From: a virus
Taxonomy: Duplodnaviria > Heunggongvirae > Uroviricota > Caudoviricetes
Reading direction: 5' to 3' (one strand)
IMG/VR virus record: IMGVR_UViG_3300025162_001855
DNA: 64,000 bases
The position numbers and the translations under genes were made by a program. How positions within the stretch are numbered: position 1 is the stretch's first letter; each line of letters opens with the position of its first letter. The notes under the pieces are model-generated. The model saw only the letters and a list, made by a program, of their open reading frames with translations. It ran no database searches and was not told the DNA's origin. Below are positions 364-22,639 of the stretch, in pieces.

Positions 364-900
364 TAAACAGGAACGAAACGTTTATGCCGGCTGTTCTACC
401 ACTGAACTATGAGCCGATAACGGTCCAACGGGAATTGAACCCGTGCTTGCTGGTCGAGTATGTTGTATGCTGTACTCGTTCCTAAATCAATATATCAAGT
501 CCATAGCCGAGATTCTGTTCTATGCAACCATTTGTCTATGCACCAACCCGTCCGTTACGTTGAGACTTCACTGGGACTGTTTGGCTTGCTGACCCCTTTC
601 CGTATTCAGTAGTAAAACGATAACATAGCCACCAGATTATGGGGTTAGTATTTGAGTAGCCATTCCTTGCTACACTAGGTTATCTCCTACCAGTCTCGGG
701 TCAGTCTCGAACTTCCTCCATTATACTAAGTTATTACTGAACCCAGTATAACAGCGATTGCTTGACTTGATATAAAATTGGTGGGGCGTGAGAGAATTGA
801 ACTCTCGAGTGGCCGCGCGTGCCAGGACCATCCCAGACCCATAGTTGGTGGATCTGTTGGGATTCGAACCCAATAACTCCCATTTACGCCCCGATAAATT

Positions 901-977
901 TGGTGCCCACGGGCGGAGTCGAACCGCCAACAACGAGCTTCTGAGACTCGCTCCTCTGCCAATTGGGATACGGGGGC
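901..977 (-). tRNA. tRNA with anticodon CAG (a Leu anticodon) in a class-I short-variable-arm body
   Basis: Cloverleaf folded by hand: acceptor GCCCCCG/CGTGGGC, T-arm GGCGG-TTCGACT-CCGCC, anticodon arm CGAGT-CTCAGAA-GCTCG, 5-nt variable loop, A73 and encoded CCA. Confidence 0.5.
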
Positions 978-1257
978 TAAACTATTATGACCAAGGATGG
1001 CCGGCTGTTGGACTTGCTGTACCCGATTCTGTTGTAATTGTACCATCAACATATGCCGAATGCGTTCCAACAATGGTATGTAATGTGCGATATCCCGGGG
1101 TACCAACGGCTGCGCGTTCAGTAGTGGCCAATGCGAGCTTGTCGGTTCTACGCTTTAATCTAGTAGCAATCGGATCCACGTTTGGTCCCGACATTACTAC
1201 TTCTGTTGAAATACCATTTGCTGCCATGTTACTGTCCTCTAATGGTATTTAGCAATT

Positions 1258-1347
1258 TGGCGGAAGGTGTAGGATTTGAACCTACGTGGCTGTTACACCC
1301 ATCTCGTTTCGAGCGAGCGCCGATAGACCGGACTCTGGCAACCTTCC
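1258..1347 (-). tRNA. tRNA-Ser(CGA), class II
   Basis: Acceptor GGAAGGT/ACCTTCC, long variable arm, anticodon loop CTCGAAA, T-loop TTCAAAT, encoded CCA. Confidence 0.55.
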
Positions 1348-1355
1348 ATAAACTG

Positions 1356-1440
1356 TGGCGGAAGACATCGGAATCGAACCGACACCCCTAAGAGTGGACC
1401 ACCTTTCCAAGATGGTTTGTACCCAGTACACTATCTTCCT
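1356..1440 (-). tRNA. tRNA-Ser(GGA), class II
   Basis: Acceptor GGAAGAT/GTCTTCC, anticodon arm CCATC-TTGGAAA-GGTGG, long variable arm, T-loop TTCGATT, encoded CCA. Confidence 0.6.
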
Positions 1441-1742
1441 CGTATAAATCAATAAAGTTTTTTCCGTAAACGTTTACGACACTTCTATTTATGTGAATCA
1501 AGGTGCGCCAATAGACCACTCTGGCAACTCTCCATAAAACTGTTTCTACTAGGATTCGAACCTAGACATTGCGCCGATCAATATAATCGGTGCTAAGTAT
1601 ACCAATTCCTCACGTTATGCAAACATAGAAACAAAAATAAGCCCGTGTTTCGCCGGCTGTCTACAGCCACCACTTGGGAGGATCACGGTATCCTATTCTT
1701 CAGATTGTCCTTTTACTTGCGGCTGTTGCCCCACAAGGGATT

Positions 1743-1830
1743 TGGCGGAAGGTGTAGGATTCGAACCCACGTGCCCCTAAGGACCATCTCGGTTCAAGCG
1801 AGCGCCATTTGACCTCTCTGGCAACCTTCC
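1743..1830 (-). tRNA. tRNA-Ser(TGA), class II
   Basis: Acceptor GGAAGGT/ACCTTCC, anticodon loop CTTGAAC, long variable arm, T-loop TTCGAAT, encoded CCA. Confidence 0.55.
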
Positions 1831-1834
1831 AAAA

Positions 1835-2302
1835 TCATAAATTTTCTCTCTTTAATTTATCAATATACCAACCCACTCTAGTTGAACGTAATGTAGTTGT
1901 GTCGTTATTGTAATTGTATCTCAAATCCGGTTGTAACTTCTGCAAATTAAGAAAGTACACACCATTTGGATCAAATTCGGGATCATTAAATGCAATGACC
2001 ACATGAGTATTATGCTTTGCAGCGATATTCATATAGCTCGTATAGAATTGAAGATCAAATCCAAACGATCGTTTCCCTTTATATTCATAAGCCTTTCGTA
2101 CCTTGGCATCCACAAAGAAAAAGGTTTTGGAACTTCGATTATATAGTTCGAAATCCGGATATTGATCCCCGTCTACGCGGCACTTGTCCGATGTGTCTTT
2201 AATAATCCATGCTTGGCCCAAAGTCATATCAAGCCATGTGTGTAGCTTCTTTTCAAATGCTTTACCAATGGCATTACTAGTATCGAAACTTTTATAGCTC
2301 AT
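1835..2302 (-). CDS. PD-(D/E)xK nuclease-like protein
   Basis: ORF track; D...VDAKVRK arrangement resembles a D-(D/E)xK catalytic core. Confidence 0.35.
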   Translation of the reverse strand: MSYKSFDTSNAIGKAFEKKLHTWLDMTLGQAWIIKDTSDKCRVDGDQYPDFELYNRSSKTFFFVDAKVRKAYEYKGKRSFGFDLQFYTSYMNIAAKHNTHVVIAFNDPEFDPNGVYFLNLQKLQPDLRYNYNNDTTTLRSTRVGWYIDKLKRENL

Positions 2303-2737: not shown

Positions 2738-2812
2738 TGGCTGGGTGGCTAGGAGTCGAACCTAGATTAACGGAGTCAGAGTCCGTTGTCCTACCAATTA
2801 GACGACCTCCCA
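2738..2812 (-). tRNA. tRNA-Gln(CTG)
   Basis: U1:A72 acceptor TGGGAGG/CCACCCA, anticodon arm ACGGA-CTCTGAC-TCCGT, T-loop TTCGACT, G73 and encoded CCA; E. coli tRNA-Gln-like. Confidence 0.6.
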
Positions 2813-3027: not shown

Positions 3028-3501
3028 TTATTGAGCCTTGACGTACTTATTGTACGCAGCAACCCAATCTGTTGCAATCTCTTTTTGTGCCGTTGCCATA
3101 TCAATTTGGCCGGCGCAAATCATTTTGTGCAACTTGTTTTCCAATGCATCCTTTAAATGGGCATTGTATGGTGTCGTTGTGTACGACTGGGGCCATAAGT
3201 TCTTAATGTCATTCATGCCCCCAAGTTCAAGCGAGATTAAATGGTCAATCTCGAACTTATCGGCACTCGGATCAATGTTGTATTCTTTGAACGCAGCCTT
3301 CTTAAGTGAATCGGGCACGTTGCGTACCTTGTTACCCTGTGCATCCTTTCCGGCTGTGTAGTTTGGAACGCAAACTATTTCCTTTGTGGCCGCTGGGTTA
3401 ACCATCCCCGGTGTCAACGTTGGATCCGGCTTCTGTGGGAAGTCTACTGCCATCGCCGGCAAAGTTACGAATAATAATACTAAGGTGTATAAGTGTTTCA
3501 T
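3028..3501 (-). CDS. HNH-motif nuclease-like protein with an N-terminal signal peptide
   Basis: Signal peptide MKHLYTLVLLFVTLPAMA; HNH-like block EIDHLISLELGGMNDIKN. Confidence 0.4.
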   Translation of the reverse strand: MKHLYTLVLLFVTLPAMAVDFPQKPDPTLTPGMVNPAATKEIVCVPNYTAGKDAQGNKVRNVPDSLKKAAFKEYNIDPSADKFEIDHLISLELGGMNDIKNLWPQSYTTTPYNAHLKDALENKLHKMICAGQIDMATAQKEIATDWVAAYNKYVKAQ

Positions 3502-3819: not shown

Positions 3820-3895
3820 TGGTGCCCATTGTCGGATTCGAACTGACGACCTTTGACTTACGAAGTCACTGCTCTACCAACTGAGCTAAACGGGC
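3820..3895 (-). tRNA. tRNA-Thr(CGT)
   Basis: Acceptor GCCCGTT/AATGGGC, D-arm GCTC-AGTTGGTA-GAGC, anticodon loop TTCGTAA, T-loop TTCGAAT, encoded CCA. Confidence 0.6.
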
Positions 3896-4317: not shown

Positions 4318-4392
4318 TGGAGCGGAAGACGAGATTCGAACTCGCGACATTCAGGTTGGCAACTTGACGCTCTACCACTGAGCTACATCCGC
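4318..4392 (-). tRNA. tRNA-Gly(GCC)
   Basis: Acceptor GCGGATG/CTTCCGC, anticodon loop TTGCCAA, T-loop TTCGAAT, encoded CCA. Confidence 0.6.
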
Positions 4393-5581: not shown

Positions 5582-5660
5582 TGGCGCGCCAGAGAGGACT
5601 CGAACCTCCAACCTCACCGGTAGGAACGGTGAGCTCTATCCTATATTGAGCTACTGACGC
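5582..5660 (-). tRNA. tRNA-Arg(CCT)
   Basis: Acceptor GCGTCAG/CTGGCGC, anticodon arm CACCG-TTCCTAC-CGGTG, T-loop TTCGAGT, G73 and encoded CCA. Confidence 0.6.
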
Positions 5661-5678: not shown

Positions 5679-5763
5679 TGGTGCGCTTGGCGAGACTCGA
5701 ACTCGCATGTCTTTCGACGATAGCACCTCAAGCTATTGGGTCTACCAACTCCCCCACAAGCGC
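5679..5763 (-). tRNA. tRNA-Leu(GAG), class II
   Basis: Acceptor GCGCTTG/CAAGCGC, anticodon arm ATAGC-TTGAGGT-GCTAT, 13-nt variable arm, T-loop TTCGAGT, A73 and encoded CCA. Confidence 0.6.
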
Positions 5764-6393
5764 GTTATCCCAAACCTTTATATCTTCTAATAGTTGTTCC
5801 AATGTTATTTCACACTTCTTAGTCTTTCTAGCGTTATCGCGGTGACTAATGAATCTACAATTTGCCGGGTGAGAAATGATCTTAGGGTCGATGTTGTTCT
5901 TATACCCATAGTCTATAGATATACGATGATCTCGTACTACTCCATCTAAGTTCTTTCCTCTCGAGTACATTCCAGACTGTTTCAATAAATCGAACCCGGG
6001 TATGCGTTCAATACAACCCGCTAGGTTGAACTCACATTGTTCTCGATATATGATCTTGTGTAGTCGCTCTTCATTTGTTGTACGCCGCCTACCAGTAACC
6101 GTGCTAGCCTGCTTTGCTATGCTCGGGTGTGTGCTTTTGGTGTGCCCCTTGGCCCACGCCATTTTGTCTTTGGTATCTTGCGACAGGCTCTTATATCTAT
6201 CGGAATAGTCTCTACCACAGGTTTTCAGTCCGTTACTGTTTTTTGCTCTTATTGCCGGGCAACTATTCGGAAATGGCTTACACAAAAACTTGCCAGATCG
6301 ATTTTGATATCTGGCAACAGTACCGCATCCGCACTCACATAGCGCGTCGGTTACTACTTCTTTTGCTGGTCTTGGTCCACTTTTGTTTGGCAT
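5728..6393 (-). CDS. HNH homing-type endonuclease
   Basis: HNH block DHRISIDYGYKNN...HPANCRFISHRDNARK plus Cys-rich N-terminus; the 3' end overlaps the 5' end of tRNA-Leu(GAG). Confidence 0.55.
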   Translation of the reverse strand: MPNKSGPRPAKEVVTDALCECGCGTVARYQNRSGKFLCKPFPNSCPAIRAKNSNGLKTCGRDYSDRYKSLSQDTKDKMAWAKGHTKSTHPSIAKQASTVTGRRRTTNEERLHKIIYREQCEFNLAGCIERIPGFDLLKQSGMYSRGKNLDGVVRDHRISIDYGYKNNIDPKIISHPANCRFISHRDNARKTKKCEITLEQLLEDIKVWDNALVGELVDPIA

Positions 6394-6595: not shown

Positions 6596-6670
6596 TTGGT
6601 GCCCCCACCGAGAATCGAACTCAGATTTCTGACTTACCAAGTCAATGTACTAACCGTTGTACTATAGGGG
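6596..6670 (-). tRNA. tRNA-Thr(GGT)
   Basis: Acceptor GCCCCTA/TGGGGGC, anticodon arm TTGAC-TTGGTAA-GTCAG, T-loop TTCGATT, encoded CCA. Confidence 0.6.
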
Positions 6671-6673
6671 CAA

Positions 6674-6749
6674 ATGGTGCGCGATGAAGGGATCGAACCT
6701 TCGACATCTACAATGTCAATGTAGCGCTCATACCGCTGAGCTAATCGCG
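6674..6749 (-). tRNA. tRNA-Val(GAC)
   Basis: Acceptor GCGCGAT/ATCGCGC, anticodon arm CTACA-TTGACAT-TGTAG, T-loop TTCGATC, encoded CCA. Confidence 0.65.
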
Positions 6750-6899
6750 CAAATAAGGCGCGGGGGGTGGCTCATCACCACTCTTCATAAAAACAGTTGC
6801 AACTGTTTCAGATGGGCGGCTTTTTCAGGACCGTTGCATACCCCACCAGACTACTTACGCCCTTTGCAAATTACGGCGACTCCCCCGCATATAGAAACT

Positions 6900-6975
6900 T
6901 GGTCAAGGTAAGGAGACTCGAACTCCTAGCCTCGTCGCCCCGAACGACGCGCTCTACCAATTGAGCTATACCCTG
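6900..6975 (-). tRNA. tRNA-Pro(CGG)
   Basis: Acceptor CAGGGTA/TACCTTG, anticodon arm CGTCG-TTCGGGG-CGACG, T-loop TTCGAGT, encoded CCA. Confidence 0.6.
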
Positions 6976-7503
6976 TTAATAAAAAAATGTCGATACAATA
7001 TGTATCACTCCGGCCATAAGCAACATAGCCAAGAACGGCAAATGAAACATACGCCAATGTTCAAACCATTGATCAAATTTAGCAAGATGTTTTCTGTTGT
7101 ATAGGTATCGACCAATAAGGCCGCTAATAACAGTCACCCACATACTGCACATGGCTATTCTTGCATTGCCCGCCCCAAGATGAAATCCGGTGTGATACAG
7201 GATAGCAATGGGACCAAATATACCAAGTAATGGATGCCACCAAAACCAATTGTACTCCGATCGAGGAAAGGCACGGGGCCAACGCTTCTTGGCCGAATAA
7301 AGGAATAGCAAGGCTAGCATACTTGCCCCGGTAATCCCGAGCGCATATCCTAGTCCATTTTTTGGAGTAATGTATTGGTCCGGATGATAAGCATAGCCGG
7401 CAATAATCAATGCCGCCGCAATTATACCTACCGCTCTTGGTCCGGCTTTACCCAATTCATAACTCCTCTTTAAAGCTGGTGCTGGTGTTTGGAATCGAAC
7501 CAA
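6976..7503 (-). CDS. integral membrane protein (multi-pass)
   Basis: ORF track; about five hydrophobic helices. Confidence 0.4.
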   Translation of the reverse strand: MVRFQTPAPALKRSYELGKAGPRAVGIIAAALIIAGYAYHPDQYITPKNGLGYALGITGASMLALLFLYSAKKRWPRAFPRSEYNWFWWHPLLGIFGPIAILYHTGFHLGAGNARIAMCSMWVTVISGLIGRYLYNRKHLAKFDQWFEHWRMFHLPFLAMLLMAGVIHIVSTFFY

Positions 7504-7552
7504 ATATCACTCGCTTATCAGGCGAGGCCCGCAGCCGTCTGGACCCACCAGC
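7478..7552 (-). tRNA. tRNA-Ile(GAT)
   Basis: Acceptor GCTGGTG/CACCAGC, anticodon arm CTCGC-CTGATAA-GCGAG, T-loop TTCGATT, encoded CCA. Confidence 0.6.
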
Positions 7553-8163
7553 ACTTGTATAAACTCTTTAGTCAATTGTTGTTCTTCCAATACAACAACA
7601 CGAACATGATTTTGTTGGCTGACATGTTCTATCTTTTCTTTATCCAATCTTGCCTTATACGAATTCTTAGGATCTAAATAGATATTGTAATCCACCAAAA
7701 GAAAATCCGGAAAATATTTCTTACCATCATACTTTAGGTGGCCAGGGCGAATCCATCGTATCCCCAATTCGTTTAATATTTTAGAGCACCGCAACTCATA
7801 TGAGGATTGCAAACACACCTGGTTACCAAATGAATCGCATACATTAAATTTTTTGCTTCTTCCGGCACGTTCTCTATAACCACCAAACCCTTGTGACTTG
7901 GCCGCAGCCGATAGTTTCGCTCGTCGGGCAGTCTCCATTACCGGATCTGTACACCGACCCATTTGCTTAGTGGTGTGTCTAAGAGATTCGGCATTCTTAG
8001 CCACTCGTTCATCTGTTTTAGCCGACAGTCCTTTATTCCACGCTGGGTGACCTAACGTGTGAGACACATAAATGCGGTCAGTATTCTTTGGGCATAACCG
8101 TTCATGGTTCCTGGTTGAGTTTGGATTTTTACATTCCTTACCACAATGTTTGCAAGTATTCAT
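7507..8163 (-). CDS. C2HC zinc-finger homing-type endonuclease (paralog 1 of 3)
   Basis: N-terminal CKHCGKECKNPNSTRNHERLC (C-x2-C-x12-H-x3-C); C-terminal nuclease-like block YFPDFLLVDYNIYLDPK; 3' end overlaps tRNA-Ile. Confidence 0.5.
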   Translation of the reverse strand: MNTCKHCGKECKNPNSTRNHERLCPKNTDRIYVSHTLGHPAWNKGLSAKTDERVAKNAESLRHTTKQMGRCTDPVMETARRAKLSAAAKSQGFGGYRERAGRSKKFNVCDSFGNQVCLQSSYELRCSKILNELGIRWIRPGHLKYDGKKYFPDFLLVDYNIYLDPKNSYKARLDKEKIEHVSQQNHVRVVVLEEQQLTKEFIQVLVGPDGCGPRLISE

Positions 8164-8224: not shown

Positions 8225-8881
8225 TCAAAATATCTGTGTAAACTCTGTCGGGGTGATAAGTCCCAAGTTTGTCTTGCGATCCTTACGCATCTCTCCAAAC
8301 TCAAAGAATGGATTGGTATGCGGAATAGTCCCATCACTTGGCATTCCATATGCCAAGATACCCACGCCATGGTCGGTATCAACTGTGACAATCTTCTTGT
8401 TGAGCAATGTGCGGAGATAGTAAATTGCCTTCCAGCAACTACCGTTGAGCGCACCAATTGCCTCCTTACCACCCTCGTTATAGAACCAATCCATGTCGTC
8501 ATTGGCCATAATCCAATCGGGCGGATTACAATCATGGAACACAATAAATCCATTATCGGACAAATGTGCCATCGAGTTGGCTGCATCCTTAAGTGTTTGG
8601 CCGGCTGTATGTAGTCCATCAATGAACACAACATCCCATTTATGGTCCACGGGAAAGCGAGTTTGGCCTTGCTCAAGGATCTTAAAGAATTCATCGGATG
8701 TCAGTTGGAATTCAACTGGATTACTCGGATTCAACAATCCCGGATCGACACCAACCTTGTGTGCCGCTGCAATATTATCAAAGCATTCGCGGGGATCATC
8801 AACACCAATCTCCAGATACTTACAACCCTGTGGAAAGTATTTTGAAATTAGGTAATTGAGAATGTTAATCCGGTTCATCAT
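8225..8881 (-). CDS. class I SAM-dependent methyltransferase (TylF/MycF-like)
   Basis: YLEIGV motif I-like and VVFIDGLH block in the translation. Confidence 0.5.
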   Translation of the reverse strand: MMNRINILNYLISKYFPQGCKYLEIGVDDPRECFDNIAAAHKVGVDPGLLNPSNPVEFQLTSDEFFKILEQGQTRFPVDHKWDVVFIDGLHTAGQTLKDAANSMAHLSDNGFIVFHDCNPPDWIMANDDMDWFYNEGGKEAIGALNGSCWKAIYYLRTLLNKKIVTVDTDHGVGILAYGMPSDGTIPHTNPFFEFGEMRKDRKTNLGLITPTEFTQIF

Positions 8882-8920: not shown

Positions 8921-8996
8921 TGGTACCCCGTGTCAGACTCGAACTGACATAATTCTGCGTGTAAAGCAGATGCTTGAACCTCTCAGCTACCGGGGC
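8921..8996 (-). tRNA. tRNA-Val(TAC)
   Basis: Anticodon arm TCTGC-TTTACAC-GCAGA, T-arm GTCAG-TTCGAGT-CTGAC, A73 and encoded CCA. Confidence 0.55.
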
Positions 8997-9001: not shown

Positions 9002-9076
9002 TGGCAGACCCTACGGGTATCGATCCCGTTACTCTACCTTGAAAGGGTAGTGATATAGCCAGTTATCTAAGGGTCC
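9002..9076 (-). tRNA. tRNA-Glu(TTC)
   Basis: Acceptor GGACCCT/AGGGTCT, anticodon arm CTACC-CTTTCAA-GGTAG, atypical T-loop ATCGATA, G73 and encoded CCA. Confidence 0.55.
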
Positions 9077-9085: not shown

Positions 9086-9168
9086 TGGTGCTGGCAGTAA
9101 GACTCGAACTTACGTAGGTTTCCCGACGGCTTACAAAACCGTTGCAATTGCCACTATGCGATGCCAGC
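9086..9168 (-). tRNA. tRNA-Thr(TGT), 83 nt with an extended variable region
   Basis: Acceptor GCTGGCA/TGCCAGC, anticodon arm ACGGT-TTTGTAA-GCCGT, T-arm GTAAG-TTCGAGT-CTTAC, encoded CCA. Confidence 0.45.
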
Positions 9169-9566: not shown

Positions 9567-9644
9567 TGGTGGCTGAGGTGAGGATCGAACTCACGCCATT
9601 CTACTTTATGAAAGTAGCGCACATACCTTCTATGCTACTCAGCC
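9567..9644 (-). tRNA. tRNA-Met(CAT)
   Basis: Acceptor GGCTGAG/CTCAGCC, anticodon arm CTACT-TTCATAA-AGTAG, T-arm GTGAG-TTCGATC-CTCAC, A73 and encoded CCA. Confidence 0.6.
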
Positions 9645-10486: not shown

Positions 10487-10529
10487 AACTATATTTATCC
10501 GCGAACACTATATTCTTAGATTAAGAAGT

Positions 10530-13372: not shown

Positions 13373-14172
13373 AGTGTCACCTCAAATTTACCAAAGCATT
13401 CTAAAAAATCTTTGGGTAGAGTAGTAGCATCCACGCGGACGAATTTCAAGTCTCGTCCATATAAATCTTTGCCTTCGGATACAACCTGTTTGATGTAATC
13501 GATATCGGTGTATCGGGCATTGTTATATTCTTGATGGGCCGAATTAATTATCTTGGCTTGGATGAATGCCGGATCCCCCCAATAGCTTAGGTGCCAACCC
13601 GAATCCAACACCCCGCGTAATTTAAACCTGTTATCACGAAACCATTGTGCGCCATTGGACTGTACATATTTGTTGAATGTTATTACAGTGCCGCGCCATT
13701 GATCAAGCTCCTTATGCTGGAGATTGAAATAGAACATGTCTTGAAAAGATACCACAGCCCCAACATCGGGCGTCAAGTGCTTCTTGGTAATGTCAATTAA
13801 ATTGCGAGATGGAATCTCGTCTAAGTCCGAGATAACAACTAGTGCATCATCGGGATAATCCTTTAGAGCTTCCGTGATTGCACCACGTTGGTCATTTTCA
13901 AAGCGCCAGTATCCACTACTGTAATCAAACTCTGTCAATTTCTTATCGAAGTCATACTTGGTTCGATCTGGAGTAAATTTAACGTATTGTATCTTATCAC
14001 TGTATGCAACAAGGCGTTCTTGATTTTCTAAATAGTTAAACGGTTTTGTCTTACCACTGAAGGTAAGGTTGGATTCGACAATGACAAACTTGTCAATCCT
14101 ATCATACAAATATTGCAATCTGCCTTCTAGGATATCTAGTTCATTGGCAAACATAAAGCAATCAATGATCAT
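13369..14172 (-). CDS. GT17-like glycosyltransferase (paralog 2, tandem)
   Basis: N-terminal MIIDCFMFANELDILEGRLQYL and a WHLSYWG block; overlaps its upstream paralog in an ATGA start/stop arrangement. Confidence 0.55.
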   Translation of the reverse strand: MIIDCFMFANELDILEGRLQYLYDRIDKFVIVESNLTFSGKTKPFNYLENQERLVAYSDKIQYVKFTPDRTKYDFDKKLTEFDYSSGYWRFENDQRGAITEALKDYPDDALVVISDLDEIPSRNLIDITKKHLTPDVGAVVSFQDMFYFNLQHKELDQWRGTVITFNKYVQSNGAQWFRDNRFKLRGVLDSGWHLSYWGDPAFIQAKIINSAHQEYNNARYTDIDYIKQVVSEGKDLYGRDLKFVRVDATTLPKDFLECFGKFEVTL

Positions 14173-14225: not shown

Positions 14226-14302
14226 TGGCGCCCCCGGAGAGACTCGAACTCCCGACCTGACGGGTAGAAACCGTATGCTCTAATCCACTGAGCTACGAGG
14301 GC
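14226..14302 (-). tRNA. tRNA-Arg(TCT)
   Basis: Acceptor GCCCTCG/CGGGGGC, anticodon arm TACGG-TTTCTAC-CCGTC, T-loop TTCGAGT, G73 and encoded CCA. Confidence 0.6.
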
Positions 14303-14307
14303 AAGAT

Positions 14308-14382
14308 TGGGGTGACTAGAGGGAATCGAACCCTCATTGAAGGAATCACAATCCTTGATCCTACCATTGAACGATAGCCACC
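14308..14382 (-). tRNA. tRNA-His(GTG) with an encoded G-1
   Basis: Extra 5' G pairing with C73, acceptor GTGGCTA/TAGTCAC, anticodon arm AAGGA-TTGTGAT-TCCTT, T-loop TTCGATT, encoded CCA. Confidence 0.6.
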
Positions 14383-14468
14383 ATCGAAATAAACAGGATC
14401 GTTTCCACTCCCGAAGAAGTGTCTTTGGGTTTGAACCAACATCTATTTATACAAAAATGATTCTAGAG

Positions 14469-14541
14469 CGCTCCTACGGGAACTCGAATCCCGATTCTCA
14501 CCTTGAGAGGGTGGTATCCTAACCTGTTAGATGATAGGAGC
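14469..14541 (-). tRNA. tRNA-Glu(CTC); CCA not encoded
   Basis: Acceptor GCTCCTA/TAGGAGC, T-arm CGGGA-TTCGAGT-TCCCG, anticodon loop CTCTCAA with one stem mismatch, 3' end G then CTC. Confidence 0.5.
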
Positions 14542-14551: not shown

Positions 14552-14628
14552 TGGTGCTCGTGATAGGAGTCGAACCTACAACATCATGATCCTAAATCAT
14601 GCGCGTCTGCCAGTTGCGCCACACGAGC
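14552..14628 (-). tRNA. tRNA with anticodon TAG (a Leu anticodon) in a class-I body
   Basis: Acceptor GCTCGTG/CACGAGC, anticodon arm CATGA-TTTAGGA-TCATG, 6-nt variable loop, T-loop TTCGACT, A73 and encoded CCA. Confidence 0.45.
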
Positions 14629-14633: not shown

Positions 14634-14707
14634 TGGAGCGGAATACGAGACTCGAACTCGTTTAGTCAGCTTGGAAGGCTGAAGCACAACCCATATGCCA
14701 ATTCCGC
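14634..14707 (-). tRNA. tRNA-Gly(TCC)
   Basis: Acceptor GCGGAAT/ATTCCGC, anticodon arm TCAGC-CTTCCAA-GCTGA, T-arm ACGAG-TTCGAGT-CTCGT, encoded CCA. Confidence 0.6.
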
Positions 14708-14778: not shown

Positions 14779-15237
14779 CTAATTCTTTTTCAGAGCTTCC
14801 GAAATTTTCCGTTTGTGTTCTTTGGATTTCGGTTTACCCTTGTTACCTGCTGCATTCGTGTTGCCCACCATCTTACGTGAATTCATACGACATGCTGCGT
14901 CATAACCATGTTTGGCTACCATATGGTACCATGCACCCTTATGGACCCCACTCTCTACTGCATCGATACCGATATTCTCTTTGTCGGTACCCCAATACAA
15001 GTGGCGTGGATTAGAACACTTTGCGTTATGACAGGCATGGCACAATATAATTCTACCGGATGGTATTGTTGTATTGAGATACTGAGCCAACACACCTTTA
15101 TGGTTTGTAGAGTTACCACCACGCTCACAACAGGTTTCATCTAATGCCAAATGACTACGTCGTTCTTCACGACTTCGTTTAATAAATTCAAGTATGTTTT
15201 CCATACTTCTATTTATACAAGTAAACACACTAGACAC
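14779..15237 (-). CDS. HNH endonuclease
   Basis: HNH-like block CHACHNAKCSNPRHLYWGTDKEN in the translation. Confidence 0.5.
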   Translation of the reverse strand: MSSVFTCINRSMENILEFIKRSREERRSHLALDETCCERGGNSTNHKGVLAQYLNTTIPSGRIILCHACHNAKCSNPRHLYWGTDKENIGIDAVESGVHKGAWYHMVAKHGYDAACRMNSRKMVGNTNAAGNKGKPKSKEHKRKISEALKKN

Positions 15238-15258: not shown

Positions 15259-15336
15259 TGGTACGGAAGAAGGGATTCGAACCCATACTGTAGAGATTTT
15301 AAGTCTCTTGTCTCCTGCCAATTGGACTACTTCCGC
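15259..15336 (-). tRNA. tRNA with anticodon TAA (a Leu anticodon) in a class-I body
   Basis: Acceptor GCGGAAG/CTTCCGT, anticodon arm AGAGA-CTTAAAA-TCTCT (perfect stem), 5-nt variable loop ACAGT, T-loop TTCGAAT, A73 and encoded CCA. Confidence 0.5.
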
Positions 15337-15520: not shown

Positions 15521-15597
15521 TGGTCGGGATTGAAGGACTCAAACCTTCGACCTTCTGCGCCCAAGGCAGACGCTCTATCAAGCTGAGCTAAACCCCG
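15521..15597 (-). tRNA. tRNA-Pro(TGG)
   Basis: Acceptor CGGGGTT/AATCCCG, anticodon arm TCTGC-CTTGGGC-GCAGA, T-arm GAAGG-TTTGAGT-CCTTC, encoded CCA. Confidence 0.6.
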
Positions 15598-16315: not shown

Positions 16316-16409
16316 TGGCGGAAAGGGTGGGATTCGAACCCACGGAGCCCGGTTTAAAGGCTCGCTCAGTTAGCAACCGAGTGCTTTAGGCCAGCTCAGC
16401 CACCTTTCC
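16316..16409 (-). tRNA. tRNA-Ser(GCT), class II
   Basis: Acceptor GGAAAGG/CCTTTCC, anticodon arm CTCGG-TTGCTAA-CTGAG, about 21-nt variable arm, T-arm GTGGG-TTCGAAT-CCCAC, encoded CCA. Confidence 0.6.
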
Positions 16410-16719: not shown

Positions 16720-16896
16720 GATTAGTTTGCCCACACAGTATTTAGCGAGCAAGCACCGGCCTTGAACCGGAAAGGGTACCACGCCCTCGAAGAAGCCAAA
16801 TCTTCTCGGTACTAGTTTTGAATACGCCTCCCAATGTGGTACGAGAATTGTAAACTACTCCGTTCCCTATCTTCTACCTGCAAGTTTGGTTGAGGG

Positions 16897-16972
16897 ACTA
16901 GGAATCGAACCTAGAGTCTTCCGATCCAAAGTCGGAGGTTTTGCCAATTAAACTATCCCTCAATAATAAGTG
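16897..16972 (-). tRNA. tRNA-Gln(TTG)
   Basis: U1:A72 acceptor TGAGGGA/TCCCTCA, anticodon arm TCCGA-CTTTGGA-TCGGA, T-arm CTAGG-TTCGATT-CCTAG, encoded CCA. Confidence 0.65.
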
Positions 16973-17167: not shown

Positions 17168-17242
17168 TGGTGGGACTGCAGGGATTCGAACCCTGGACCA
17201 ATCGGTTAAAAGCCGATTGCTCTACCGCTGAGCTACAATCCC
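17168..17242 (-). tRNA. tRNA-Lys(TTT)
   Basis: Acceptor GGGATTG/CAGTCCC, anticodon arm ATCGG-CTTTTAA-CCGAT, T-arm CAGGG-TTCGAAT-CCCTG, encoded CCA. Confidence 0.65.
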
Positions 17243-17733
17243 AAAATTGATCGACGGGCGCAGCACGCCCAAGGCACTTTCAACAGCAGCCTTTCCATCT
17301 GTGAGCTTACGCTCGATCACTGAGCCGAAATTTAAATGGTAGCGGGGGGACGATTTGCACATCCGAACCTTTTCAGGACTGGATTATGAGCCCAGTTTCG
17401 TTGACTACTTGAATACCCCGCAACAAACATTTCTATGTGGCCGGTGGGGTATCTTGGTACTCTGTACCATGCCCATCCTCCGTTTACTTTCCTTACCACA
17501 TAAAATCAAAACTAGACGACCTTTTGCCGCTGGGATAAAACCAGCACCACTTATCGGGAAGGCGGCCGAACCTTATTTGGTGGAGTATGTCGGCATCGAA
17601 CCGACCTGCATATTCTCGGTGCAAGCGAGACGTCCACTCCAAGCAGACCCATACCCCAAATTTAGTAGGATTCTCTCACCCTTGTCAAGTCTGATTCGCC
17701 CGACTTTCTCTAGCCATCTTTTCAATGGCAATT

Positions 17734-17809
17734 TGGTGGAGGTGACAAGGATCGAACTTGCGACATTTTGGTTGCAAACCAAACGCTCTACCAACTGAGC
17801 TACACCCCC
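17734..17809 (-). tRNA. tRNA-Ala(TGC)
   Basis: Acceptor GGGGGTG/CACCTCC with the G3:U70 pair, anticodon arm TTTGG-TTTGCAA-CCAAA, T-loop TTCGATC, encoded CCA. Confidence 0.65.
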
Positions 17810-19103: not shown

Positions 19104-19179
19104 TGGTGCCGCCCCCCGGGATCGAACCGGGCACACTACGCTCTTCAGGCGTATGCTCTACCAACTGAGCTAGAGCGGC
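19104..19179 (-). tRNA. tRNA-Phe(GAA)
   Basis: Acceptor GCCGCTC/GGGCGGC, D-arm GCTC-AGTTGGTA-GAGC, anticodon arm TACGC-CTGAAGA-GCGTA, T-loop TTCGATC, encoded CCA. Confidence 0.65.
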
Positions 19180-19377
19180 ATAATAAGATGCTGATGGTGT
19201 TTACCTACGTTTCAGTCCCCGAGTTAAACACAACCCTCGGACTTACTCTGCTAGGAAGTAGGGCGGGTCTTAACCGCACATCAGCATTGTTTGGCGACCG
19301 ACAGGGGTAACGATCCCCTCTGAATATCTTGCGTGACAGGCAAGCGACCACTCCATGCAGTCCCGTCGGCCATAAAT

Positions 19378-19466
19378 TGGCTGGTGGAGTTGGATTCGAA
19401 CCAACGATGAGGAATTAACCTGACAGATTAACAGTCTGTTCTCTGCTACCACTCGAGTACCCACCA
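19378..19466 (-). tRNA. tRNA with anticodon GTT (Asn) in a Tyr-like class-II body, 89 nt
   Basis: Acceptor TGGTGGG/TCCACCA, anticodon arm ACAGA-CTGTTAA-TCTGT, 17-nt variable arm with AGG/CCT hairpin, T-loop TTCGAAT, G73 and encoded CCA; body resembles E. coli tRNA-Tyr except GTA changed to GTT. Confidence 0.5.
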
Positions 19467-19470
19467 AAAA

Positions 19471-20100
19471 CTACTCGTGAATGAATTGTTTCGCTATACC
19501 AATATAAGTCTTGGTATCTTTAAACATTTTCTTCCACTCTATTCTTAACACTTTCCAACCGGCTTCGGCTAGAACTTGGTCTTTTCTTTTATCGCGCGCC
19601 TTAACTTCGTCAAAGCGTTGATGCTGCTCGCCATCAATCTCTATGGCCAATTTTTTATCAGGCCACGCAAAGTCAATTGCATAAATGCCAACAGGATATT
19701 CCCTGCTGTAATTCTTATCTTCAAATTCGTTTTCGATAACTTGTATGAAGAATTTTTCTGGCCAGGATGGCTCGTTATTCCAACGACTTTTTCCTATGTT
19801 CCACGCAGTACCGTTATCGTGCCGGGCTTTCATCTTAGCAGCAAGTTTTGCTTTTGTTTCGAGAGTATGCCGTCGCTTAGATGATCTAGCTGATAACTTT
19901 TGTCGTGTCTCCTTCGATATTACCGGAGGAGGTAAACCCAACTTTTTCGCCTTTATGAATTGATTTGAATTTGATACTTTGTCTCGGTTGTTTTTCATCC
20001 ATGTAACTTGTTTATTGGGGTTGTTATTGCACAACCGCTCATGATTTAACAAGCTATTTTGGCTCTTACACATTCGATCACAAAACTTACAATTGGACAT
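19471..20100 (-). CDS. C2HC zinc-finger plus Vsr/DUF559-like homing-type endonuclease (paralog 3 of 3)
   Basis: N-terminal CKFCDRMCKSQNSLLNHERLC; C-terminal IDFAWPDKKLAIEIDGEQH...RDKRKDQVLAEAGWKVLRI. Confidence 0.6.
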   Translation of the reverse strand: MSNCKFCDRMCKSQNSLLNHERLCNNNPNKQVTWMKNNRDKVSNSNQFIKAKKLGLPPPVISKETRQKLSARSSKRRHTLETKAKLAAKMKARHDNGTAWNIGKSRWNNEPSWPEKFFIQVIENEFEDKNYSREYPVGIYAIDFAWPDKKLAIEIDGEQHQRFDEVKARDKRKDQVLAEAGWKVLRIEWKKMFKDTKTYIGIAKQFIHE

Positions 20101-21236
20101 TTGGTAGTGCTCCTGTCTATGTATTTAGCTGCTCTACCGCTGAGCTACTTACCAATAAACTCTAATAACGGTGCCACCCAGTCCGCCGTTTGCAGACCAT
20201 ATTCCGTTATTCTGACTGTGCCCTTTCTTTCGTCTACAGAGTTTTGTTAATGCACAGTCCCCAAACTCAATCTACCAAATGGATTATCGCCCTCTTCTGA
20301 CGGCCCGAGTTTACGGACTGGACGCAAGGCTTCAAAAGCCCCGACTTACACCACAAGAAAAAGTGACTGCGTCCCCACCTTATATATTTACGCAATCTAG
20401 TTGCACGCCGATAGAAAGTGTAGACGGTATGTTCAATGTCTGTGCAACCGCCACCGTAGTACACTAGGGATATATCGGAGCCCCCTCTCGGCGTATTTTC
20501 AACGCTGGTCCACGGCGCCGTTGATCAGGCGACGACGGTTAGCTATTTTTATGTGATAGTTTACCGACCAAATTCAAAATATAATACAAGGCCACCATCC
20601 TGTATTGTGATCGTACTCCTTAATATTGGTTGCTGCAACTCACCTCAGTACGATCACCAGTTGCCACGCCAGGGGTCTGGCTTGACTGAGCCCCCTCTCG
20701 GTAGAGACGCTATCCTCTCTACTAGACTTCCAAAAGTATTAGTGGGCCGACCATCCACCAATTGATGTTGTGTCCTATCGTTTGTACCAGGGCCTTGCTT
20801 ATAGATATGTGGTGTAATGCCACATGACTCACAACCTCCCGCCCACGCATACAGAGCATGTATCGTATAGCCCAACTACGGTTGACGATCATCAACAAGG
20901 ACTTAGTTTAACACCAAGCAACACCTTGCGGTATTCTTCACGCCTTTATAGTGGGCCTCTTGTCCCCACGCACATCGCCGATTCTCACGGCCGGCTCCTT
21001 TGTTCCATCTCAGGGCATACAAGTATGCGGGATGGAGGTTTGCTTCACTGAATTTGACGAACAAGGACTCGAACCTTGTATTAACCCCTTTGGAATCGAA
21101 CCGTTCGGTGCCGCCGCGCCGCCTCACCAGAGGAATCGTCAAAATTTGAATGTCCCAACGGTTTTGAACCGTCTACCGGGCCACAAGGACCCTGCTGTGA
21201 CCAACACCGAGCGTGGCCTACGCCCCGGGACAAAAT

Positions 21237-21314
21237 TGGAGCACCGAGTCAGATTTGAACTGACGATGGTTTCGTTTTGCAGACGAATGCGTTGGACCAC
21301 TCCGCCACCGGTGC
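21237..21314 (-). tRNA. tRNA-Cys(GCA)
   Basis: Acceptor GCACCGG/TCGGTGC, anticodon arm TTCGT-CTGCAAA-ACGAA, T-arm GTCAG-TTCAAAT-CTGAC, U73 and encoded CCA. Confidence 0.6.
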
Positions 21315-21450
21315 ATTATATAGTTGGGGCAATGACGGACCGGTGATTAGCCGGAATCCTTAGCTTATCAGGCTTAGTCATTGCCCTCATGTAGTGCGGC
21401 GGGTTTGGGTTTACCGCCAACCCCAAGTCATTTGTATGGACTTGGACATT

Positions 21451-21535
21451 TGGTGGGCCAGGTAGGGTTCGAACCTACACCCCGATGGGGACTTCCGCTT
21501 TACAGGCGGATGCACTTCCACTTATGCGTCTGACC
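21451..21535 (-). tRNA. tRNA-Tyr(GTA), class II
   Basis: Acceptor GGGTCAG/CTGGCCC, anticodon arm TCCGC-CTGTAAA-GCGGA, long variable arm, T-arm GTAGG-TTCGAAC-CCTAC, A73 and encoded CCA. Confidence 0.6.
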
Positions 21536-21984
21536 CAAATAAAACGTGCGTTTGAAAGGAACACTGACCTTTCTCGACGCACAGCGGCATAAAATAGGGG
21601 CGGAATATCGGATCCGCCAAACGATGAGAGTTGCACTCACAGGTAGGTTGATAGGAACTAGTATACCTCGTACCTTCTGCTTGAATTCACGCACCTTTTT
21701 TCGTGATACGTCTGGACAGCTTGCCAGCTTTGACCGCCACTTGCTCTCGCCCCCTGTTACCCGTTGCAACGGTTGGCAGCAGGTCCGAGTAGATCGGTAC
21801 GGGCTCGTTGTGACTCGCGATTGCTCAGCGTAGTCGAATGGGAAGGGATGACACGGGTTTTCACCGCAAACGGACAAGTCACTCCGTATTTTATTTCGCA
21901 TCCAGCAGAACTCGGGAACTACCCCTTTACCACCAGTGCGTATTTGTCGGACTCGATCACCGACCCATCATCCCATTGAAACAG

Positions 21985-22069
21985 TGGTGCCCGAAGAGGG
22001 ACTCGAACCCCCACACCTTTCGGCGCCTGATTTTGAGTCAGGTGTGACTACCAATTCCACCATTCGGGC
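21985..22069 (-). tRNA. tRNA-Leu(CAA), class II
   Basis: Acceptor GCCCGAA/TTCGGGC, anticodon arm CCTGA-CTCAAAA-TCAGG, 13-nt variable arm, T-arm GGGGG-TTCGAGT-CCCTC, A73 and encoded CCA. Confidence 0.6.
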
Positions 22070-22639
22070 AAAAATAAGATCCGCTTTTCGTTGCAGAGTT
22101 GCAACTTGGCCACTTTATGCGTGGCTACCTCATTGAGGCGGTGCGGATTAACCCAAGAATATTAGCGACGGGGCGCAGCCATTTGAAATTTGCTTTCTGT
22201 CGTTTAAGACTTGGAGCAGGCATGATGATGCCCGCAAGTCCCCCGTGCTCATCAAAATTGAATTTCACATTTGCAGCAATCGAAAGTTACTGCGAACCAC
22301 CGTCGTATATTTGGGTGGGGGCTGTGAAAGTGCCCAGTTGCCGTGCATTTTACTCCCCGCGTTTCCACCACGGGTTTCATCCGACGTCCGCCCATATGAG
22401 CTTTGTTTAGTGTGGCGCTCGCAGTCACGTTCCGCGTTACCACATAATGAAAAACCCTGGGATCTTTCGATGCCAGGGTCTAGTTTAACAGATTTGTACT
22501 GTTGGGACTAGACCCCTAGCTTATCTCCCATATTCACTGTTCTAGGTAGAATGGTAAACTGGGAGAACCCGAGTTGCGACCAATAGGTTGCCAAGGCACC
22601 TTTGGCTGCTAATTTACTCTTTTCTATATGCATTCTTCC

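Follow-up and report, generated by a model that had tools for sequence, protein, structure and literature searches.

The 64,000-nt stretch of DNA analysed here (the window), from the IMG/VR virus record IMGVR_UViG_3300025162_001855 (Caudoviricetes), carries a large island of transfer RNA (tRNA) genes on its minus strand and, at the end of that island, a gene for an RNA homologous to ribonuclease P (RNase P) RNA. The region is probably the tRNA production module of a large (~270-330 kb) uncultivated phage, ending in a phage-encoded, reduced RNase P RNA (RPR) that would mature the tRNAs by the mechanism proposed below. As far as can be determined, this size-reduced RNA, predicted from its sequence to be catalytic, is undescribed. 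It belongs to a family that is widespread among phages and linked almost exclusively to their tRNA islands. With somewhat less assurance, it is favoured here that phages encode their own catalytic RPR of a new, reduced "phage type" (combining a catalytic domain like that of type A with a minimal specificity domain and the GAGGAAGUUC variant of P4), which would be embedded in tRNA arrays, self-excised and responsible for a 5' maturation of tRNAs that does not depend on the host ribozyme.

In a permissive Rfam scan of positions 380-900, three weak matches lie on the tRNA strand, namely RNaseP_arch at 492-749 (covering the full length of the model), the transfer-messenger RNA (tmRNA) model tmRNA_permuted at 827-873 and YrlA at 393-445. 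The RPR is closed by a perfect 10-bp P1 helix (773-764 with 501-492), and P3 forms a 15-bp hairpin around 754-718. Conserved region I (CR-I) with the 5' strand of P4, GGAGGAAGUUCGAGA, is found at 719-705, and the 3' strand of P4 with CR-V, AACAGAAUCUCGGCUA, at 519-504; the strands AG[U]UCGAGA and UCUCGGCU make up a P4 with a bulged U. Five motifs stand in the right order, these being GGAGGAAGUUCGAGAC (E. coli: GAGGAAAGUCCGGGC), GUCAGCAAGCCAAACAG (E. coli: GGAGCAAGGCCAAAUAG), CGGGUUGGUGC (E. coli: CCGGGUAGGCUGC), UAGACAAAUG (E. coli: UAGAUGAAUG) and AACAGAAUCUCGGCUAU (E. coli: ACAGAACCCGGCUUAU). CR-I, CR-III, CR-IV, CR-V and the bulged-U P4 can thus be read directly, with CR-I present as the one-base variant GAGGAAGUUC and not as GAGGAAAGUCC. 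Many members of the family also have a P18-like hairpin, which is absent from the window copy.

The core was extended to other phages with a search pattern composed of GAGGAAGTTC, a gap of 175-205 nt (184 in the window) and AACAGAANNNNGGCTA, in which the four variable pairs of P4 were left free. This pattern matches 46 IMG/VR contigs of 17-365 kb, and in every one of them the NNNN of the opposite strand is complementary to the four bases left free after GAGGAAGTTC (GATG/CATC, GCGG/CCGC, AAGG/CCTT and AGAA/TTCT, among others). A control pattern that kept the reduced spacing but had the canonical CR-I, GAGGAAAGTC, gave no viral matches. The 31 distinct sequences among the pattern-matched viral contigs, which are ~50-59% identical to the window copy, served as the comparative set. 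From a plain MAFFT alignment of these, RNAalifold recovers P4, P5, P15 and P16 as 19 pairs, 15 of them with compensatory changes. Overall, 96.9% of the cells are paired, compared with 27-40% when the partners are slid by 1-3 columns; across the 31 copies, the helices P4, P5, P15 and P16 covary and are 93-97% paired where slid controls reach 27-42%. Covariation scores 0.734 (controls, at most 0.127), there are 168 double-change cells (controls, at most 32), and none of 500 shuffles reached the observed values. A model-fitted alignment gives the same picture for the four helices. The eight pairs of P4 are 99.6% paired, all four variable ones having compensatory changes, while P5 (99.2%), P15 (93.5-98.9%) and P16 (91.9-96%) show double changes at every pair and follow the canonical order. 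P1/P2 is likewise maintained despite differing sequences, in that for most of the 31 copies the 3' tail, beginning 0-2 nt after GGCUA, forms its best duplex with the 5' flank of that same copy, with a mean energy of -15.6 kcal/mol against -10.6 for mismatched partners. Two further conserved motifs, AGCAAGCCAAACAG and UAGAUAAAUG, line up with their counterparts in rnpB (CR-III and CR-IV). In type-A RNase P, the GGU of L15 pairs with the 3'-CCA of the tRNA; the phage GGU, within CGGGUUGGUGC, is invariant in 31 of 31 copies and aligns to GGGUAGGCUGC of rnpB, where the GGU residues are presumably G292-U294.

Homology to the cellular RNA is borne out by a covariance model, R1, that was built from 25 phage cores only. 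R1 finds six held-out phage copies at 63-108 bits and also matches the annotated rnpB gene of E. coli from end to end (36.7 bits, E about 1e-10 to 8.5e-10 in 200 kb), aligning CR-I, P5, CR-III, P15/P16, CR-IV and CR-V motif for motif and treating the E. coli specificity domain as a large insertion. With the bacterial type-A RNA (E. coli M1, encoded by rnpB; RF00010, clan CL00002) the phage RNAs share P1/P2, P3, a J3/4 containing CR-I, the bulged-U P4 pseudoknot, P5, a P15 internal loop with GGU, P16, an optional P18-like hairpin, CR-IV and CR-V. They differ from it in their length (~250-290 nt, compared with 377 nt), in having no recognisable P7-P10, P13 or P14, in a specificity domain cut to one junction and a hairpin, in CR-I (GAGGAAGUUC instead of GAGGAAAGUCC) and in their position inside tRNA gene arrays, whereas rnpB is a lone cellular gene. 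In RNase P RNA, a CR-II/CR-III (P10-P12) module of the specificity domain reads the T and D loops of the tRNA. The specificity domains that remain in the phage RNAs keep a GAGA-hairpin-CGUUAnnA element flanked by what may be a short P11-like helix (xUGG/CCAx), of which the compensatory variants GUAG/CUAC, GAAG/CUUC, GCGG/CCGC and AUCG/CGAU can be picked out by eye. A parallel is offered by the minimal RNase P RNAs of archaea (type T of the Thermoproteaceae, and those of DPANN lineages), which are also shrunken with the catalytic domain kept, and type T is active without most of its specificity domain (as summarised in PMC7191817). Type T is nevertheless without CR-II, CR-III and P12, whereas the phage RNAs retain an ACCAC/CGUUA module, usually with a hairpin.

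The genomic setting of these RNAs is nearly uniform. Around the 31 distinct viral loci, 342 tRNA genes lie on the strand of the ribozyme and none on the other, and 78% of these tRNAs encode their CCA end; 12 loci that were scanned with Rfam hold dense tRNA arrays, one of them together with a tmRNA. Among metagenome contigs, the pattern matches at least 119 places, of which 80 were fetched. R1 scores 61 of these loci at 63-169 bits (52 distinct cores), and they are surrounded by 531 same-strand tRNAs and one on the opposite strand (1.46 tRNAs per kb), while 13 fetched loci scoring 22-47 bits have three tRNAs in 73 kb (0.04 per kb). Altogether, 873 tRNAs beside copies of the family share its strand and one does not, and public viral and metagenome data hold more than 80 distinct copies. 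The upstream tRNA ends 35-47 nt before CR-I in seven loci, leaving room for P1-P3 only, and the next tRNA starts 18-24 nt after the motif in eight.

A search of 185,579 species-representative genomes places the pattern in 12 DPANN archaeal genome bins, which R1 scores at 20-45 bits and which have no tRNA arrays. These (L052-L066: Micrarchaeota, Aenigmatarchaeota and related bins) contain compact RNase P RNAs with the GAGGAAGUUC variant and a phage-like CR-I to CR-V spacing; presumably they are cellular RNase P RNAs having the same CR-I variant, and their likeness to the phage RNAs may reflect convergent reduction or an old relationship. Since the window copy, too, scores best with the archaeal model among those of Rfam, these bins could suggest that the contigs bearing the RPR are misfiled small-genome cells, DPANN archaea or similar, and that the RNA is simply their cellular RNase P RNA. 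The archaeal copies stay well below the 63-175 bits of the phage group, however, and hardly any tRNAs lie near them; phage and cellular copies thus form separate groups, and the explanation fails. Furthermore, the window encodes a bacterial-type long-arm tRNA-Tyr, CCA ends, an SLT transglycosylase and a porin-like open reading frame (ORF), and its proteins match PHROG phage families. The same proteins recur on metagenome contigs of 270-333 kb, which with the PHROG matches supports a large phage. Its host is probably a Gram-negative bacterium. No close relative was returned when 47 kb of it was compared by megablast with 50,697 GenBank phage records.

What effectively refutes a cellular origin is a copy in Stenotrophomonas phage DLP6 (KU682439.2), which is cultured and forms plaques (PMC5349666). 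R1 scores it at 128.9 bits at ~105,810-106,008, an unannotated gap directly upstream of tRNA-Arg(CCG) in the 30-tRNA island of this phage and near its NAMPT gene. Misfiled cells are thus a most improbable source. DLP6 was the only cultured phage with the ribozyme found by blastn, BLAST being too insensitive for the RPR. A further copy (113.5 bits) lies inside a 14-tRNA array on a 203-kb contig that was assigned to a Cellvibrionaceae genome bin and most likely derives from a phage.

Several observations weigh against the assignment and must be set beside this evidence. The window copy reaches 21.3 bits with RNaseP_arch where the gathering score is 84, and neither it nor 12 other copies scanned attain the gathering threshold of any Rfam RNase P model. 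Its P4 region departs from the universal consensus, reading AGU-U-C and not AAG-U-C. The specificity domains are much reduced (52-122 nt including the P5 pairs, compared with an estimated ~165 nt in E. coli), and by column counting in the model-fitted alignment their proposed P11-like helix is only 66% paired. None of the 24 tRNAs in the island of locus L033 encodes CCA, so the argument from GGU-CCA pairing is not general. Finally, no homologue of RnpA, the protein partner, was found by tblastn in the 64-kb window of a ~270-kb genome, with an E. coli query and low sensitivity, and phmmer with an E. coli query, again a weak search, gave no match in 576 kb of related loci.

Some of these features would suit an RNA that acts as a decoy, binding host RnpA or pre-tRNAs and blocking host tRNA maturation in favour of the phage. 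With no phage RnpA found, the RNA must either function unaided or recruit the protein of its host; its specificity domain has shrunk strongly; and the only earlier viral RNase P-like RNA, that of camelpox virus, was inactive in vitro (PMC3001073). A decoy would nonetheless have no need for invariant core motifs, a bulged-U P4 and an L15 GGU across copies only ~50-60% identical, and a place within phage tRNA transcripts, as implied by 873 of 874 tRNAs on the same strand, fits processing better. The DPANN RNase P RNAs also indicate that the CR-I variant is compatible with an essential enzyme. The decoy is consequently regarded as improbable. The camelpox RNA resembles the phage family in being virus-encoded and somewhat similar to RNase P RNA (PMC3001073), but its similarity is partial and it does not cleave pre-tRNA, whereas the phage family has a full covarying core and a model that matches rnpB.

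The preferred reading, a phage ribozyme for tRNA processing, can be laid out in four steps. Because tRNA genes and short ORFs are tightly packed, the island would be transcribed as long, polycistronic precursors. The phage RPR would then remove the 5' leader of each tRNA, its invariant L15 GGU pairing with the encoded CCA ends; as no phage RnpA was found, the probable partner is host RnpA. Flanking tRNAs or tRNA-like structures would release the ribozyme itself from the precursor. Lastly, the mature tRNAs, along with the products of the ligase, kinase and phosphatase genes, could sustain phage translation when host tRNAs or their processing become limiting or come under attack. Scanning positions 1-2500 for promoters and terminators gave nothing above shuffles. 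Candidate reasons for carrying an RPR are the processing capacity that a burst of 42 tRNAs would demand, freedom from a host enzyme that has been switched off or broken down, and the context of tRNA-targeting host defences put forward in the original prediction, with which the data would be compatible. Whatever the selective cause, the RPR points to self-sufficiency in tRNA production.

The island that this ribozyme would serve was first described, in the original prediction, as at least 38 minus-strand tRNA genes interleaved with homing-type nuclease genes. That description holds for a very large single-strand island with free-standing nuclease genes and proves to be an undercount, as ARAGORN counts 42 tRNA genes from 901 to 22069, every one of them on the minus strand. 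One block of ~21 kb thereby contains the whole set and represents 20 of 20 amino acids. The island was taken to begin at 380, where there are in fact no tRNAs before 900, although the stretch does hold the tRNA-like elements and the RPR, which the original prediction had missed. With default filters, 35 of the 42 genes meet the gathering score of Rfam RF00005, and a permissive-filter scan adds Ser-CGA and Ile-GAU, for a total of 37. The other five are found by ARAGORN only, i.e. Ser-GGA, Ile-UAU (95 nt), a third CAU (86 nt), a second Ala-UGC (80 nt) and Asp-GUC (80 nt), each with a 7-bp acceptor stem and an encoded CCA. The isoacceptor tally of 38 agrees exactly once Asp-GUC, Ile-UAU, the third CAU and the second Ala are added, and with these four all 20 amino acids are covered; the reported absence of an Asp tRNA does not stand, tRNA-Asp(GUC) being present at 19292-19371. 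CCA is genomically encoded in 41 of the 42 genes, Glu(CUC) being the exception, where chance would place it at one fixed position in 1/64 of cases. G3:U70 is an identity element for AlaRS, as are G73, the GUC anticodon and C38 for AspRS. The 80-nt Ala-UGC (17578-17657) has the G3:U70 pair and the Asp-GUC gene has G73, GUC and C38. Read from the sequence, both share an unusual scaffold with one compensatory change between them in the D stem, and their odd D arm matched nothing in any other locus searched. The 86-nt CAU tRNA (17337-17422) is possibly initiator-like, a call of low confidence.

In size, the set does exceed what is usual for T4-like phages, as had been claimed, without being a record, since XacN1 has 56 tRNAs (PMC5852040) and huge phages up to 67 (PMC7162821); S-CRM01 has 33 and DLP6 has 30 (PMC5349666). 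These repertoires resemble that of the window in comprising dozens of clustered tRNAs for all or most amino acids. As large phage tRNA sets and tRNA clusters with homing endonucleases have already been published, the island alone is of an ordinary kind. The difference lies in the RPR, which has not been reported for such repertoires; the term RNase P is absent from PMC5349666 and PMC7162821, and yet the DLP6 island does contain one.

Codon compensation is the classical explanation of phage tRNAs (PMC10264068), and tRNA number rises with phage genome size (PMC7162821). The 42-55% GC content of the window and a relative in a Cellvibrionaceae bin make a compositional mismatch with the host possible. 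The island could then serve mainly to adjust codon supply, the RPR adding processing capacity with no host defence involved. This must be counted as possible but doubtful, because the set is complete and not selective and includes tRNAs for common codons. Judging from the anticodons, all 61 sense codons should be readable under standard wobble rules. Codon usage across ~13,600 codons of likely phage genes is fairly even, nearly flat, so the set is not a small top-up for a few rare codons; five Leu, four Ser and four Arg tRNAs with a processing ribozyme and repair enzymes likewise go beyond one.

The repair enzymes are those that the original prediction had placed downstream of the island, and Pfam matches agree in finding Rnl1- and Rnl2-type ligases, a kinase and phosphatases (Table 1), the Rnl2-type ligase ~2 kb from the island. 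Together these are predicted to complete a T4-type repair set (Rnl1-family ligase, 5'-kinase and 3'-phosphatase) within the window; profile searches also place metallophosphoesterases, NAMPT and an NMNAT-Nudix protein downstream. The arrangement recalls T4 Pnk/Rnl1 repair in that ligases of both types, with a kinase adjoining the Rnl1-type one, and phosphatases lie beside tRNAs. That phage tRNAs replace cleaved host tRNAs is a published idea (PMC10264068, PMC11464382, PMC11555353), and the window may be linked to evasion of anticodon nucleases by analogy with escape in T5 and from PARIS and retron/PtuAB. The anticodon loop of Lys-UUU is CUUUUAA. The loop of E. coli Lys-UUU is presumably identical, with no sign of escape by loop mutation, a comparison that is uninformative without the host. 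The NAMPT and NMNAT-Nudix genes (36477-39253, minus strand) are near the tRNA and RNA-repair region, and in DLP6 NAMPT adjoins the tRNA island (L067:1-889); NAD+ salvage in large phages has already been published.

RNase P RNA belongs to the small number of RNAs regarded as exclusively cellular. The searchable literature gave no report of one encoded by a phage, although subscription-only papers lie outside it and may contain a prior description, and RNase P goes unmentioned in jumbo-phage reviews, the huge-phage paper and the DLP6 paper (PMC5349666). If correct, the reading given here would make this the first functional virus-encoded RNase P, and phages would bring a tRNA-maturing ribozyme in addition to tRNAs, CCA ends, repair enzymes and, in other phages, synthetases. 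As to why phages keep tRNAs, possession of a processing enzyme as well suggests preparation for a host tRNA pipeline that is saturated, shut off or attacked. The family would also provide a natural set of minimised and highly diverse RNase P RNAs with which to probe the need for a specificity domain, and a new annotation marker, because current Rfam models miss it. With DLP6 and its Stenotrophomonas host in culture, the system is tractable and immediately testable.

The nuclease genes that interrupt the island had been counted as eight of HNH or C2HC type. Six ORFs have profile support, and the remaining two (3028-3501 and 1835-2302) show a motif by eye only. The three proteins labelled C2HC do combine an N-terminal zinc finger with a nuclease domain, but the domain is not HNH; it is of Vsr/DUF559 type in 19471-20100 (Pfam) and of PHROG "endonuclease" type in 7507-8163 and 11925-12548. 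Four nuclease ORFs stop 10-42 nt within the tRNA gene that follows and another two end 4 nt short of one, whereas none of the 14 other ORFs overlaps a tRNA. Stop codons inside or beside the next tRNA fit insertion at tRNA gene edges with the conserved tRNA sequence as homing target, and the nuclease genes would thus be selfish elements of the homing type that have inserted where tRNA genes have their 5' edges. Free-standing homing-type endonuclease genes are likewise found among the tRNA genes of T4, in which SegB cuts in the tRNA region and drives its inheritance (PMC2330249), and in mycobacteriophage tRNA clusters, which contain HNH genes (PMC6409571); amplification of anti-defence tRNA loci is a further effect that SegB can have (PMC13096335). 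SegB belongs to the GIY-YIG enzymes, whereas the nucleases of the window, six to eight in number, are HNH types and zinc-finger fusions (one Vsr/DUF559-like), four of them ending inside the next tRNA. Among 24 contigs with a neighbouring glycosyltransferase family 17 (GT17) gene, which have mostly the same neighbouring genes, no relative free of the homing endonucleases was close enough for comparison.

Table 1. Features of the window discussed in the text.
Feature	Position	Strand	Evidence and remarks
Permuted tRNA-like module (T arm, closed acceptor, D arm), downstream of RPR	393..445	-	YrlA RF02553 24.1 bits, gathering score 69
Reduced RNase P RNA, 282 nt	492..773	-	RNaseP_arch 21.3 bits; phage-only model R1 122.5 bits
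Nested double tRNA-like element, directly upstream of RPR	779..892	-	read from sequence; stops 5 nt before P1
tRNA-Leu(CAG)	901..977	-	short form, no long variable arm, A73, CCA encoded; ARAGORN; Rfam 47.6 bits
tRNA-Ser(CGA)	1258..1347	-	ARAGORN; Rfam 36.8 bits
tRNA-Ser(GGA), atypical	1356..1439	-	ARAGORN only; CCA encoded
tRNA-Ser(UGA)	1743..1830	-	ARAGORN; Rfam 42.3 bits
ORF, possible PD-(D/E)xK motif by eye	1835..2302	-	no Pfam/PHROG match; ends 4 nt before tRNA-Ser(UGA); unsupported
tRNA-Gln(CUG)	2738..2812	-	ARAGORN; Rfam 59.0 bits
ORF, signal-peptide-like N terminus, HNH-like motif by eye	3028..3501	-	no Pfam/PHROG match; nuclease assignment without profile support
tRNA-Thr(CGU)	3820..3895	-	ARAGORN; Rfam 64.0 bits
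tRNA-Gly(GCC)	4318..4392	-	ARAGORN; Rfam 65.8 bits
tRNA-Arg(CCU)	5582..5660	-	ARAGORN; Rfam 56.8 bits
tRNA-Leu(GAG), long-arm form	5679..5763	-	ARAGORN; Rfam 53.3 bits
HNH-motif nuclease ORF	5728..6393	-	phrog_23051 E 1.6e-20, function unknown; HNH motif by eye; stop 36 nt inside tRNA-Leu(GAG)
tRNA-Thr(GGU)	6597..6671	-	ARAGORN; Rfam 64.2 bits
tRNA-Val(GAC)	6675..6750	-	ARAGORN; Rfam 66.6 bits
tRNA-Pro(CGG)	6900..6975	-	ARAGORN; Rfam 61.4 bits
tRNA-Ile(GAU)	7477..7548	-	ARAGORN; Rfam 40.3 bits at 7480-7552
Zinc-finger + endonuclease ORF	7507..8163	-	phrog_15137 "endonuclease" 2e-6, phrog_9019 8e-6; stop 42 nt inside tRNA-Ile(GAU)
Methyltransf_24 methyltransferase gene in island	8225..8881	-	Pfam 3.9e-9
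tRNA-Val(UAC)	8921..8996	-	ARAGORN; Rfam 55.4 bits
tRNA-Glu(UUC)	9002..9076	-	ARAGORN; Rfam 53.4 bits
tRNA-Thr(UGU), enlarged variable region	9086..9168	-	ARAGORN; Rfam 55.7 bits
tRNA(CAU), elongator Met or Ile2	9567..9644	-	ARAGORN; Rfam 58.3 bits
tRNA-Lys(CUU)	9781..9855	-	ARAGORN; Rfam 54.6 bits
HNH homing endonuclease ORF	9830..10486	-	phrog_655 "homing endonuclease" 1.1e-43; weak Pfam HNH; stop 26 nt inside tRNA-Lys(CUU)
tRNA-Trp(CCA)	10530..10603	-	ARAGORN; Rfam 58.1 bits
tRNA-Arg(UCG)	11621..11697	-	ARAGORN; Rfam 66.0 bits
tRNA-Arg(ACG)	11770..11846	-	ARAGORN; Rfam 65.7 bits
tRNA(CAU), elongator-type	11859..11934	-	ARAGORN; Rfam 70.1 bits
Zinc-finger + endonuclease ORF	11925..12548	-	phrog_15137 "endonuclease" 5.6e-24; stop 10 nt inside tRNA(CAU)
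Two tandem GT17 genes	12587..14172	-	Pfam PF04724, 2e-18 and 1.5e-28
tRNA-Arg(UCU)	14226..14302	-	ARAGORN; Rfam 61.2 bits
tRNA-His(GUG)	14308..14381	-	ARAGORN; Rfam 55.4 bits
tRNA-Glu(CUC)	14468..14541	-	sole tRNA without encoded CCA; ARAGORN; Rfam 52.3 bits
tRNA-Leu(UAG), short form	14552..14628	-	ARAGORN; Rfam 58.4 bits
tRNA-Gly(UCC)	14634..14707	-	ARAGORN; Rfam 56.3 bits
HNH_3/His-Me-type endonuclease ORF	14779..15237	-	phrog_6254 "HNH endonuclease" 1.8e-7; weak Pfam HNH_3
tRNA-Leu(UAA), short form	15259..15336	-	ARAGORN; Rfam 56.7 bits
tRNA-Pro(UGG)	15521..15597	-	ARAGORN; Rfam 62.8 bits
tRNA-Ser(GCU)	16316..16409	-	ARAGORN; Rfam 54.3 bits
tRNA(UAU) "Ile", 95 nt, long variable arm, recurrent phage type	16432..16526	-	ARAGORN only
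tRNA-Gln(UUG)	16887..16962	-	ARAGORN; Rfam 68.5 bits
tRNA-Lys(UUU)	17168..17242	-	ARAGORN; Rfam 76.1 bits
tRNA(CAU), atypical, 86 nt	17337..17422	-	U1:U72 mismatch, G-rich anticodon stem, odd T loop; ARAGORN only; CCA encoded
tRNA-Ala(UGC), atypical, 80 nt	17578..17657	-	G3:U70, enlarged D loop and variable loop; ARAGORN only
tRNA-Ala(UGC), canonical	17734..17809	-	ARAGORN; Rfam 72.1 bits
tRNA-Phe(GAA)	19104..19179	-	ARAGORN; Rfam 60.4 bits
tRNA-Asp(GUC), atypical, 80 nt	19292..19371	-	G73, C38; ARAGORN only; CCA encoded
tRNA-Asn(GUU), long variable arm	19378..19466	-	ARAGORN; Rfam 49.5 bits
Zinc-finger + DUF559/Vsr-like endonuclease ORF	19471..20100	-	Pfam DUF559 2.2e-13, MTES_1575 1.4e-11; ends 4 nt before tRNA-Asn
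tRNA-Cys(GCA)	21237..21314	-	ARAGORN; Rfam 58.3 bits
tRNA-Tyr(GUA), bacterial long-arm type	21451..21536	-	ARAGORN; Rfam 52.3 bits
tRNA-Leu(CAA), long-arm form	21985..22069	-	ARAGORN; Rfam 57.3 bits
RNA ligase, Rnl2/PHA02142 type	24096..25148	-	Pfam PHA02142 9e-24, RNA_ligase 2e-22
Rnl1-type RNA ligase	29142..30029	-	Pfam RNA_lig_T4_1 4.7e-8
P-loop kinase preceding Rnl1-type ligase	30026..30466	-	AAA_33 1.1e-13; T4 Rnl1/Pnk-like repair pair
SpoU-family RNA 2'-O-methyltransferase	48212..48820	-	Pfam SpoU_methylase 5.6e-18
HAD phosphatase, PNK3P-like	50123..50638	-	Pfam HAD_2 7e-11, PNK3P 2.9e-9

The RPR is flanked on both sides by tRNA-like elements. The outer part of the upstream element (779-892) has an acceptor GGGGCGU/ACGCCCC-ACCA and a T arm GAGAG-UUCAAUU-CUCUC, and the inner part is a circularly permuted Ala-type structure composed of a T arm, CAGAUCC-ACCA, a 5-nt loop and GGGUCUG, with a G3:U70 pair. 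Its fold z-score is -2.6, and tmRNA_permuted scores 28.5 bits at 827-873 against a gathering score of 47. The element resembles the tRNA-like domain of a two-piece tmRNA minus the tag-coding part. Its identification as a two-piece tmRNA was rejected, there being no tag reading frame with a stop, a sub-threshold score and no tmRNA call by ARAGORN. No homologue was found elsewhere, the scan of viral sequences giving one chance match in a coding region. On the downstream side, the module at 393-445 weakly resembles the tRNA-like domain of YrlA, a Y-RNA-like RNA. DUF2828/DUF7788 proteins are encoded at 50616-51701 and 52356-52859 (both minus strand), beside the PNK3P-like phosphatase, with a match to phrog_850 "RNA-binding protein" at E 2e-108; the DUF2828 protein (50616-51701) has no sequence match in the PDB. 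The module and these proteins might constitute a Ro60/Y-RNA-like pairing with the RNA repair genes.

Other structured RNAs occur in related islands. Locus L001, whose GT17 homologue is 45% identical, has at 10423-10887 and 12760-13185 a GOLLD RNA (201.8 bits) with a tRNA-Lys inside and, in its tRNA island, a genuine permuted tmRNA (119 bits, tag ANDSVYALAA). As L005 and L018 contain tmRNAs too, large structured RNAs seem to be carried regularly in these islands. Four distinct tRNAs with a CUA anticodon, labelled Pyl by ARAGORN, are present among the viral loci (L019 and three other sequences); these would be amber suppressors and hint at stop-codon recoding in some of the phages that bear the RPR. 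A third GT17 gene of the window lies at 57416-58243 (minus strand), and GT17 homologues are also found within the tRNA islands of related phage contigs L001 and L002.

Unusual tRNA shapes recur as well. The three atypical Leu tRNAs of the original prediction are real, with Leu-CAG, Leu-UAG and Leu-UAA measuring 74-75 nt without CCA and having no long variable arm. To our knowledge, bacterial Leu tRNAs normally all have the long arm. Across the islands that bear the RPR, 28 of 52 distinct tRNAs with Leu anticodons are short (72-77 nt without CCA), with A73 kept in all those listed; three are in the window and 25 in L001, L002, L007, L010, L017, L018, L026, L029, L031, L032, L033, L041, L042, L045 and L061. 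The long arm is retained by 47 of 47 Ser and 10 of 10 Tyr tRNAs in these islands. The short Leu form may be a change of shape that escapes nucleases, or may be neutral for LeuRS.

A tRNA(UAU) "Ile" with a long variable arm (89-93 nt without CCA) is also recurrent. It is present in six fetched loci (L001, L010, L018, L026, L031 and L041), a GCGCCAGAUUAGCG-like core is common to several, and the DLP6 counterpart is annotated as tRNA-Ile-TAT of 92 nt. A long-arm tRNA-Asn(GUU) (85-92 nt) and an enlarged tRNA-Thr(UGU) similarly recur across unrelated phage islands; long-arm UAU, Asn and Thr loci include L001:7290-7381, L010:11309-11404, L018:4727-4818, L026:1028-1122, L031:1691-1785 and, in DLP6, L067:4855-4946. 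The island of the window itself has additional T-arm motifs and sub-threshold tRNA-like calls on the minus strand at 9193-9260, 1540-1625, 16747-16831, 21148-21233, 9663-9679 and 21062-21078, one of them a 5'-truncated CAU tRNA near 9190 that ends in CGUCACC-ACCA. These are probably decayed or rearranged tRNA genes, in line with recombination in the island. The 1.1-kb segment at 20100-21236 has no long ORF and lies inside a bin (20001-22000) of 50% GC.

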